The position numbers and the translations under genes are program-made. From a virus (lineage: Duplodnaviria > Heunggongvirae > Uroviricota > Caudoviricetes), in IMG/VR virus record IMGVR_UViG_2718217859_000007: 45,044 nucleotides of DNA; one strand, written 5' to 3'. Shown piece after piece: positions 31,637 through 32,087 of this stretch. Below the pieces are notes generated by a model. That model was not told where the DNA came from. It saw nothing but the letters and a program-made list of their open reading frames with translations, and did no database searches. Numbering within the stretch: position 1 is the first letter of the stretch; the number at the start of each line of letters is the position of its first letter.

Positions 31637-31792
31637 TTACTCCTCAGGTTCGTAAGCTGTGAAGACAGCGACCTCCGTCTGGCCGGTTCGGATTCGTACC
31701 TCGCAGAGGTCTTTCCTCGTTACCAGTACCGTCACTATGACGGTTAAACAGATGACGATCAGGGCGATTAACATCGCCTTTTGCTGCTTCAT
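31637..31792 (-). CDS. hok: Hok/Gef family type I toxin (HokD/RelF-like)
   Basis: 51 aa MKQQKAMLIALIVICLTVIVTVLVTRKDLCEVRIRTGQTEVAVFTAYEPEE, near-identical to recalled HokD; 9-bp stem hairpin right after stop (31608-31629). Confidence 0.85.
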   Translation of the reverse strand: MKQQKAMLIALIVICLTVIVTVLVTRKDLCEVRIRTGQTEVAVFTAYEPEE

Positions 31793-32003
31793 AGCCTGCT
31801 TCTCCTTGCCTTTCGGCACGTAAGAGGCTAACCTACATGTGCAAAGCATGAAATTGGCCTCAGATTAATGTTAAGCGTCTTGCCGGACGCGTGATGTTAA
31901 CTGGGGCTTTTCTCTATCTGCCTTTTGGGGTTCATGCCTGAGACAGATAGCCTCAAGCACCCGCAGCAATTCTACTTAACTCTCCTTTTCCCGCAAACCG
32001 TTT

Positions 32004-32087
32004 TTATCCCCAGCGGCAAATCGAATACACCACCAGCGCCACCGCCAGTGCGATTCCTACCGTTGTGAATGCTTCAGGCCAGGTCAT
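32004..32087 (-). CDS. putative 27-aa hydrophobic peptide, translationally coupled to upstream gene
   Basis: ATG overlaps upstream stop (ATGA); product MTWPEAFTTVGIALAVALVVYSICRWG; below ORF-track cut-off. Confidence 0.3.
   Translation of the reverse strand: MTWPEAFTTVGIALAVALVVYSICRWG

Follow-up and report, generated by a model that had tools for sequence, protein, structure and literature searches.

The window analyzed here is a 45,044-nucleotide stretch of tailed-phage DNA (IMG/VR record IMGVR_UViG_2718217859_000007), and the segment of interest lies on its minus strand, just downstream of a 129-aa Ea22-like gene. This segment very probably consists of two independent mosaic modules placed side by side within a Rac/Qin-like lambdoid prophage, in its early rightward operon. 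The first is an open reading frame (ORF) of 27 codons, which appears to be a real, translationally coupled gene for a small membrane peptide. The second, at positions 31545-31997, appears to be an intact hok/mok/sok type I toxin-antitoxin cassette of the HokD/HokW lineage. What is new here is the small ORF, which would encode an uncharacterized small phage membrane protein; the hok/sok part is textbook biology and needs only correct annotation.

The ATG of the 27-codon ORF overlaps the TGA of the 129-aa ORF in the sequence ATGA, an arrangement that was first noticed in an annotation made from the letters of the sequence (here called the first-pass annotation). Taken by itself, an ORF of this length is not above chance, as there are 62 ORFs of 20 or more codons within 4 kb, and the evidence therefore has to come from comparison with other loci. 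Three 20-nt anchors retrieved a set of 312 IMG/VR loci, which fall into three subfamilies named by the second residue of the peptide: T-type (MTWPEAFTTVGIAMAVALVVYSICRWG), N-type (MNWPEAFTAVGVAIAVAFILYSLFRWG) and S-type (MSWPDAIVTLGVVFAAAFVVFSICRWG). The window copy, with the N-terminus M-T-W-P-E, is of the T-type.

Several features of this family argue that the reading frame is under purifying selection and is actively kept. The ORF is exactly 27 codons long in 301 of the 312 loci (96%), despite nucleotide identities between subfamilies of only 61-79%. The stop codon switches between TAA and TGA without changing its position, and the only recurrent indels are two in-frame deletions of 6 nt. 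Frameshifted, stop-loss and nonsense copies do exist, but they are few (phage POCJ13, for example, carries W3stop). The ratio dN/dS, calculated pairwise over 78 aligned nucleotides, is 0.21-0.36 between subfamilies; within the T-type, pN/pS is 0.39 and variation is highest at third codon positions. The other two frames are interrupted by stops. The signals for translation initiation are kept as well: a Shine-Dalgarno (SD) motif is found upstream in 292 of 299 family loci, usually as GGAGGTGA located 6 nt before the ATG, and no fewer than 293 of these 299 have a start codon that overlaps the stop codon of the upstream gene, in the form ATGA or TGATG.

The small ORF also behaves as a module of its own. 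The upstream genes are mosaic Ea22-like genes that end in at least three unrelated C-terminal modules (...VEDILR, a DUF551 type ending ...PEPPQEVNQ, and a zinc-ribbon/coiled-coil type ending ...NIEQEVNR). Phage 933W carries the same ORF upstream of hokW (MTWPEAFANVGTVMAVVLVVYSICRWR), as does E. coli 300709, and in these two cases the ATGA overlaps the stops of differing upstream genes. On the downstream side, T-type copies occur in 34 different contexts. The hok promoter comes next in 74 of 119 T-type loci, and a terminator or another gene takes its place in the others; the small ORF is thus found without hok in 45 of the 119 T-type loci and in all N- and S-type loci, and hok modules lacking the small ORF occur too. 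The N- and S-type copies lie some 2.1 kb inside the prophage end and are closely followed by a DUF4222 gene, xis and int. Because homology between loci breaks at the ATG and at the stop codon while the neighbors vary, the ORF appears to be an independent module bounded by its own start and stop codons, a pattern that would be hard to explain unless it is a gene. In E. coli PD23 (locus L133, 1300-1470), a different hydrophobic ORF, unannotated or pseudogenized (...FVAFWLFVSCMPIIF...GVFMAVMCIEYWR), precedes hok instead. The small ORF was not found at the yfdS (DUF551)-yfdT junction of CPS-53, the one K-12 prophage inspected.

Two explanations that do without a separate gene product have to be weighed against these data. 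In the first, the ORF is not translated at all, being a conserved non-coding junction between mosaic modules, or an RNA element, that is open by chance. The ORF is indeed very short, is found in closely related phages only, coincides with a module boundary at which recombination between lambdoid phages takes place, and is unannotated in all 10 of the GenBank/RefSeq records inspected. A non-coding junction should not, however, show the low dN/dS and constant length just described, nor tolerate in-frame indels only, nor keep an SD motif and a start/stop overlap in three unrelated upstream contexts, nor conserve a hydrophobic helix together with both ends of the peptide (W3-P4 and R25-W26-G27). 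A non-coding origin is accordingly judged unlikely. The second explanation is that ribosomes shift frame at the ATGA overlap, so that the peptide becomes the C-terminal extension of a membrane-anchored isoform of the Ea22-like protein. The overlap itself, and the lack of an intergenic gap in any of the contexts, are what one would expect from such a mechanism. The ORF nevertheless has its own ATG and SD motif, and no slippery heptamer was seen in the junction sequences. Moreover, the TGATG junction of the N-type is in a different register, and therefore a single frameshift rule cannot serve all contexts. Frameshifting is hardly credible as an account of the family.

Some observations do count against a coding function. 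The SD-like sequence of the window copy is 10 nt from the ATG, a spacing above the optimum. Each dN/dS value is based on the 78 aligned nucleotides of a pair, and the value for the pair formed by the window and 933W copies is 0.73. The family is confined to phages of Escherichia and Shigella, so that its total divergence is modest. Finally, the peptide strings were not found in the searchable literature, nor in the supplements of the Ribo-seq paper on small genes of strain Sakai or of a K-12 initiation-profiling preprint. Weighing these points against the conservation, dN/dS, SD and module-boundary data, a coding function is considered highly probable, and the suggestion of the first-pass annotation that the ORF encodes a second small membrane peptide is strengthened by them.

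The predicted peptide is hydrophobic from residue 7 to residue 23 and has conserved W3-P4, G11xxxA15 and R25-W26-G27 motifs. The positive-inside rule would place the N-terminus outside and the C-terminus inside, and the GxxxA sequence may be a helix-packing motif. Similarity searches of Pfam, PHROGs and NCBIfam gave no significant match to the 27-aa peptide; KdpF (29 aa) scored 13.5 bits (E = 0.056) where the cut-off is 26.85, and phrog_4612 reached E = 0.1, neither of them significant. In general form the peptide resembles the inner-membrane proteins of E. coli of the KdpF type, being about 27 aa long with one hydrophobic helix and a charged C-terminal end. We take the type I toxins TisB and DinQ (27-29 aa) to be comparable in length, helix and charged end. 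It differs from the KdpF/TisB/DinQ class in being phage-borne, always coupled to an Ea22-like gene and without an antisense RNA.

These likenesses raise the question of whether the peptide acts as a membrane toxin in its own right, be it as another type I-like toxin or as a helper that permeabilizes the membrane together with Hok at induction. Its size and hydrophobicity are like those of type I toxins of 19-35 aa, and the T-type copy is directly upstream of hok in the majority of its loci (the 74 of 119 given above). A type I toxin would be expected to have a dedicated antisense antitoxin and its own tightly controlled mRNA. Neither an antisense promoter nor a conserved antisense partner was found, no promoter-like site was seen on either strand around the ORF, and the ORF is embedded in an operon and translationally coupled rather than provided with a tightly repressed message of its own. 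Its downstream context varies while the ORF is conserved, and the N- and S-type copies are never associated with hok. In addition, arabinose induction of the plasmid pBAD18-hokW-sokW, with Sok intact, caused no obvious growth defect (PMC8621323), although this is weak evidence because the clone does not include the SD sequence of the ORF. A toxin is thus quite improbable. The most likely role, as a best guess, is that of a small inner-membrane protein made early after induction, which would bind or modulate a membrane partner.

The fragment just mentioned deserves attention for another reason. The pBAD18-hokW-sokW clone begins 6 nt upstream of the small-ORF ATG (primer YO-432) and so holds the whole ORF (locus L001, 2501-2584), while the ΔhokW-sokW deletion spares it (PMC8621323). 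The small ORF therefore lies within the fragment by which hokW-sokW function was defined, and could confound or contribute to phenotypes assigned there.

The family is widespread within a narrow group of phages. T-type copies are present in 1363 of 5426 complete E. coli genomes, N-type copies in 485 and S-type copies in 170; the ORF is thus carried by at least a quarter of these genomes, including the main Shiga-toxin (Stx) phages, 933W, Sp5, Sp15, BP-4795 and Min27. By tblastn, the family was found only in lambdoid and Stx phages of the Escherichia/Shigella type. A contig scan with one genome per species returned E. coli and Shigella only, plus two probable contaminant contigs, and the protein collection adds one entry from E. 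albertii. The small ORF and hok region, at 95.7% identity, are also carried by "Actinobacillus phage vB_Apl-pPE4" (PP818812.1), and E. coli-type copies of the region occur on a contig of a Segatella copri metagenome-assembled genome and on a 431-bp contig of Xanthomonas pisi. These three occurrences are probably due to host mislabelling or contamination.

Like most small membrane proteins, the 27-aa peptide has been skipped by annotation pipelines. In NCCP15648, the 84-nt gap between two annotated coding sequences is exactly the small ORF. The description of the ORF as unannotated in the first-pass annotation holds for the 10 GenBank/RefSeq records inspected, but not in full: a few old submissions do list the 27-aa peptide, and the corresponding entries of the protein collection are named "bacteriophage protein", "Prophage protein" or "hypothetical protein". 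Some others are misnamed "DUF551 domain-containing protein, partial". Looking up the exact 27-aa sequences in the protein collection gave no match, and a natural 40-aa stop-loss variant used as a homology query found uncharacterized entries only. Reviews of the exo-xis region do not mention the membrane ORF.

The coordinates of both modules and of the upstream gene are collected in Table 1.

Table 1. Features of the small-ORF and hok/mok/sok modules (window coordinates)
Feature	Position	Strand	Basis and remarks
27-aa small ORF, MTWPEAFTTVGIALAVALVVYSICRWG	32004..32087	-	one predicted transmembrane helix, conserved G11xxxA15, C-terminal R-W-G
SD-like GGAGGA, 10 nt upstream of small-ORF ATG	32097..32102	-	read from sequence
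129-aa upstream gene, mosaic Ea22-like early protein, "ALASLEAEP" N-terminal module	32084..32473	-	ORF list; PHROG 660/60/924
Putative hok promoter: -35 TTTGCG (31992-31997), 17-nt spacer, -10 TAGAAT (31969-31974)	31969..31997	-	read by hand
Predicted full-length hok mRNA, about 418 nt	31545..31962	-	Rfam RF01794, fold, 92% identity to hokW-sokW
tac (translational activator) element, GGGUGCUUGAGG	31951..31962	-	mRNA 5' end; pairs with 31575-31587 in minimum-energy fold
5' leader hairpin (CTATCTG/CAGATAG repeat)	31914..31950	-	sequence, Rfam model, fold
Anti-SD (upstream complementary) box, GCCCCAG	31901..31907	-	pairs with mok SD GAGG (31858-31861) in full-length fold
mok ORF, 70 aa, in frame with hok	31637..31849	-	ORF list; layout as annotated mokW
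hok toxin ORF, 51 aa	31637..31792	-	Pfam PF01848, PHROG 251, HokW match
3'-UTR (untranslated region) GC-rich hairpin, perfect 9-bp stem and 4-nt loop	31608..31629	-	sequence; both predicted folds
fbi (fold-back inhibitory) element, CCUCAA-C-GCACCU	31575..31587	-	12 bp with tac, one bulge at 31581
Predicted intrinsic terminator of hok mRNA: 7-bp stem 31551-31568, then U-run	31541..31568	-	terminator scan, fold
Sok promoter: -35 TTGCCT (31806-31811), 17-nt spacer, -10 TAACCT (31829-31834)	31806..31834	+	same as 933W in alignment
Predicted Sok antisense RNA, about 71 nt	31841..31911	+	sokW annotation of AF125520 transferred via alignment

The toxin gene of the second module, called HokD-like in the first-pass annotation, belongs to the Hok/Gef family: the 51-aa product matches PF01848 (HOK_GEF) with 82.1 bits against a cut-off of 22, and also matches PHROG 251 ("MokW-like host killing"). 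The NCBIfam Hok models match the protein too, yet under their own cut-offs. Identical 51-aa sequences occur on 977 contigs of the protein collection, where the NCBI/PGAP name is HokD. RefSeq marks only the Hok coding sequence at such loci, leaving Sok, mok and the leader unmarked.

The regulatory parts, for which an alignment with characterized hok loci had been recommended, were all recovered when that alignment was made: the mok frame, Sok and its promoter, tac and fbi, and the anti-SD box. The mok frame overlaps hok, and its AUG (31847-31849) lies inside the Sok target, beneath the 5' tail of Sok. Rfam RF01794 matches 31787-31962 on the minus (hok-sense) strand over the full length of the model, with 115.3 bits against a gathering score of 59. 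This family is named "sok antitoxin (CssrC)", but it in fact models the hok leader, beginning at the 5' end of the mRNA and finishing at the hok AUG, and the match therefore marks the leader and not the antisense RNA. The first stem of this leader model is formed by the inverted repeat that the first-pass annotation had pointed out (CTATCTG at 31914-31920 and CAGATAG at 31944-31950).

Judged by where the Rfam model begins and by the tac sequence, the hok mRNA has its 5' end at 31962, 7 nt past the -10 element. When the full-length transcript (31962 to about 31545) is folded, its 5' and 3' ends are paired, with a z-score of -7.1. In this minimum-energy fold, tac and fbi close the molecule, and base-pairing takes up the mok SD as well as the SD and AUG of hok. 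When the 3' end is removed, tac refolds locally in the predicted structure of the truncated mRNA. Conservation was assessed in 88 hok loci (57 unique sequences), and as these were retrieved with the first 13 nt (tac) as the anchor, the constancy of tac among them is not independent evidence. The bulged base at 31581 is the main variable position among recognizable fbi alleles, where it may be C, T or A. No compensatory double changes are available for the tac-fbi pairing, the support for which is thermodynamic and from conservation only.

The 3' hairpin that had been singled out as perfect and conserved reads GGCGAGGGA-GAAA-UCCCUCGCC on the mRNA strand and is located between the hok stop codon and fbi. 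A perfect hairpin with a 9-bp stem and a 4-nt loop is expected by chance about 0.2 times per 45 kb, and compensatory changes are seen across loci, with the fifth pair being A-U in the window versus G-C in 933W. In the hok mRNA of plasmid R1, an equivalent stem-loop protects the 3' end of the processed message (PMC9841398), and from its position the window hairpin is probably the final stem-loop that shields the hok mRNA once its 3' end has been trimmed. It was also considered as the hok terminator, a role that is ruled out because it has no U-run and because fbi and a canonical terminator lie downstream of it. In the same area, a plus-strand ORF at 31447-31662 corresponds to the 59-aa "hypothetical protein" WP_001112736.1 of PGAP, which in related genomes (locus L002, 3506-3685) lies on the strand opposite the hok 3' UTR, fbi and the terminator; it is probably an artefact of gene calling in a region of structured RNA.

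A Sok-like RNA on the plus strand had been expected at first reading without being located, and alignment to sokW now places it, with its promoter, opposite the mok start. It is predicted to begin with 9 unpaired nt that form a 5' tail and to continue as a long hairpin with a U tail (-30.3 kcal/mol, z-score -5.2). The promoter stretch has no differences from that of 933W in the alignment, and its -10 hexamer TAACCT is exactly the one replaced by the sokW "pro-less" primer YO-421. At the level of sequence, then, the locus has a cis-encoded Sok with a promoter of its own. It does count against the assignments that a generic promoter scan called neither the hok nor the Sok promoter, both of which were placed by homology and by hand; the hok promoter was missed because its -35 hexamer matches the consensus at only three of six positions, and the Sok promoter scored under the threshold of the scan.

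The roughly 20 nt at 31838-31857, which include the mok start and the Sok 5' tail, are the most variable part of the transcribed cassette among the 88 loci. The minor-allele fraction is 0.20-0.28 here, versus about 0.03-0.10 elsewhere in the cassette, and there are at least 10 distinct alleles, most copies retaining the mok ATG. E. coli genomes have a median of 2 and a maximum of 11 places that match the hok locus. The variable recognition tail of Sok suggests that antisense specificity has diversified among co-resident hok/sok copies.

The closest characterized relative is hokW-sokW of 933W and Sp5 (AF125520), which has 92% DNA identity to the window cassette over 522 nt; HokW and the window Hok share 46 of 51 residues. 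The 933W record annotates mokW, hokW and a 71-nt sokW, and the order of elements is the same in both: 27-aa ORF, promoter, tac, Sok target, mok, hok, 3' hairpin and fbi. In Sp5, HokW is toxic and sokW counteracts it, with protection being abolished by a mutation of the sokW -10 element (Takada et al. 2021; PMC8621323). After mitomycin C treatment, sokW RNA disappears and HokW is then found in the inner membrane, in a RecA-dependent manner, and deletion of hokW-sokW delays growth arrest and halves phage release (PMC8621323). Toxicity of the window allele and its neutralization by Sok would follow by likeness to the tested HokW and sokW, with the 90-92% identity of the two loci as the basis. There are differences as well. 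The sequence at the mok start and Sok 5' tail is not that of 933W, the C-terminus of Hok is of the HokD type (TAYEPEE) rather than VDYESEK as in HokW, and homology to 933W stops just past fbi, so that the terminators are unlike.

The window protein is of the same Hok lineage as hokD (relF) of the K-12 prophage Qin, and the downstream neighbors in the window (DUF968, RusA and Q) are of the Qin type, these being presumably the gene types that follow hokD in K-12. K-12 hokD reportedly lacks mok, sok and the leader because relBE lies upstream, a conclusion said to go back to Pedersen and Gerdes in 1999. One might therefore suspect that the window gene is likewise a silent remnant that has lost its regulatory RNA elements. 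The PGAP name HokD points that way, and truncated copies are common: in many E. coli genomes, homology begins just upstream of the hok SD (query position 295). Unlike the K-12 gene as so described, the window locus keeps the entire regulatory apparatus, collinear with the experimentally active hokW-sokW. With promoter, tac, anti-SD box, mok, Sok, fbi, 3' hairpin and terminator all present, the cassette is therefore taken to be intact, and a remnant is very improbable.

Given an intact cassette, its working can be proposed by analogy with R1 hok/sok (parB), with which it shares tac/fbi end-pairing, the anti-SD (ucb) box, mok-coupled translation, 3' processing, and a Sok composed of tail and hairpin. 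HokW and R1 Hok are about 44% identical (PMC8621323), and the ucb mechanism and closed/open switch have been described for R1 hok (PMC9841398). The full-length message would be shut by tac-fbi pairing of its ends, with the mok SD held by the anti-SD box. Slow trimming from the 3' end up to the 3' hairpin would remove fbi and open the 5' region. Sok would pair across the mok start, block translation of mok and hok, and trigger decay. If Sok were lost, the 51-aa Hok would be made and inserted into the inner membrane. Judging from hokW-sokW, prophage induction probably releases Hok, which would then speed lysis. This would set it apart from the R1 system, a plasmid stability locus that acts by post-segregational killing, since the window cassette belongs to a phage operon and likely helps lysis at induction.

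The placement of hok may bear on how Sok is lost. In the window, the cassette is in the nin-like region between the replication genes and Q, and hok is in the sense orientation within an operon that has to be transcribed through for Q to be reached; transcription of Sok runs head-on against the operon. Transcription that reads through the early operon in the same sense as hok could interfere with the convergent Sok promoter, and such interference would account for the RecA-dependent loss of sokW, which was left open in the Sp5 study (PMC8621323). In a strand survey of the longest flanking ORFs, aimed at the co-orientation of hok with the operon, long antisense ORFs were common and made the outcome too noisy for use. 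In 933W the cassette is at the far right end instead. There, L0142-L0139, the 27-aa ORF and the hokW cluster (58-61.6 kb) share a strand with int, which is at the left end (1-1400), and the two form a single leftward transcription path only after excision and circularization. After excision of 933W, leftward early transcription could cross attP into the hokW cluster, which may explain why the prophage has to be induced for HokW to be produced.

A broader, rather speculative proposal joins both modules. The 27-aa peptides with the pattern MxWP(E/D)A...RWG could be an unstudied functional inner-membrane family of Stx and lambdoid phages, Ea22-coupled, that affects induction, lysis timing or superinfection, while the sense placement of hok (across attP after excision in 933W) could switch Sok off and Hok on at induction. 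This combined proposal is viewed as doubtful. If it is true, the placement of hok would answer the question left open by Takada et al. (2021; PMC8621323), and an effect of the peptide on induction or lysis timing, if there is one, would have a bearing on the release of Stx phage and toxin.

The setting of the two modules was deduced from Pfam matches, which indicate a prophage of the Rac/Qin-like type with its early rightward operon on the minus strand, running from the replication genes to the Q antiterminator. In order, the operon comprises a Cro-like protein, YdaT, a DnaT-like replication protein, DUF1627, DUF977 and several small genes, followed by the 129-aa Ea22-like gene, the 27-aa ORF, hok, a 92-aa ORF, DUF968, RusA and Q. 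The PHROG families matched by the 129-aa gene product are all of unknown function, and PGAP labels its relatives "ead/Ea22-like" or "DUF551". Further upstream, a 137-aa zinc-ribbon/coiled-coil protein (32771-33184, minus strand) has the same architecture as the L0139-type proteins encoded ahead of the small ORF in 933W; it lacks the L0139-type C-terminal end, and no small ORF follows it. Downstream of Q, at 27170-27323 on the minus strand, is a tRNA-Gly(UCC) and tRNA-Thr(UGU) pair. No ORF of the size of the subtilase AB5 genes was seen in the window; in the related strain SA53-3, the same tRNA pair adjoins the genes of the subtilase AB5 toxin, in a prophage that has stx2a as well.

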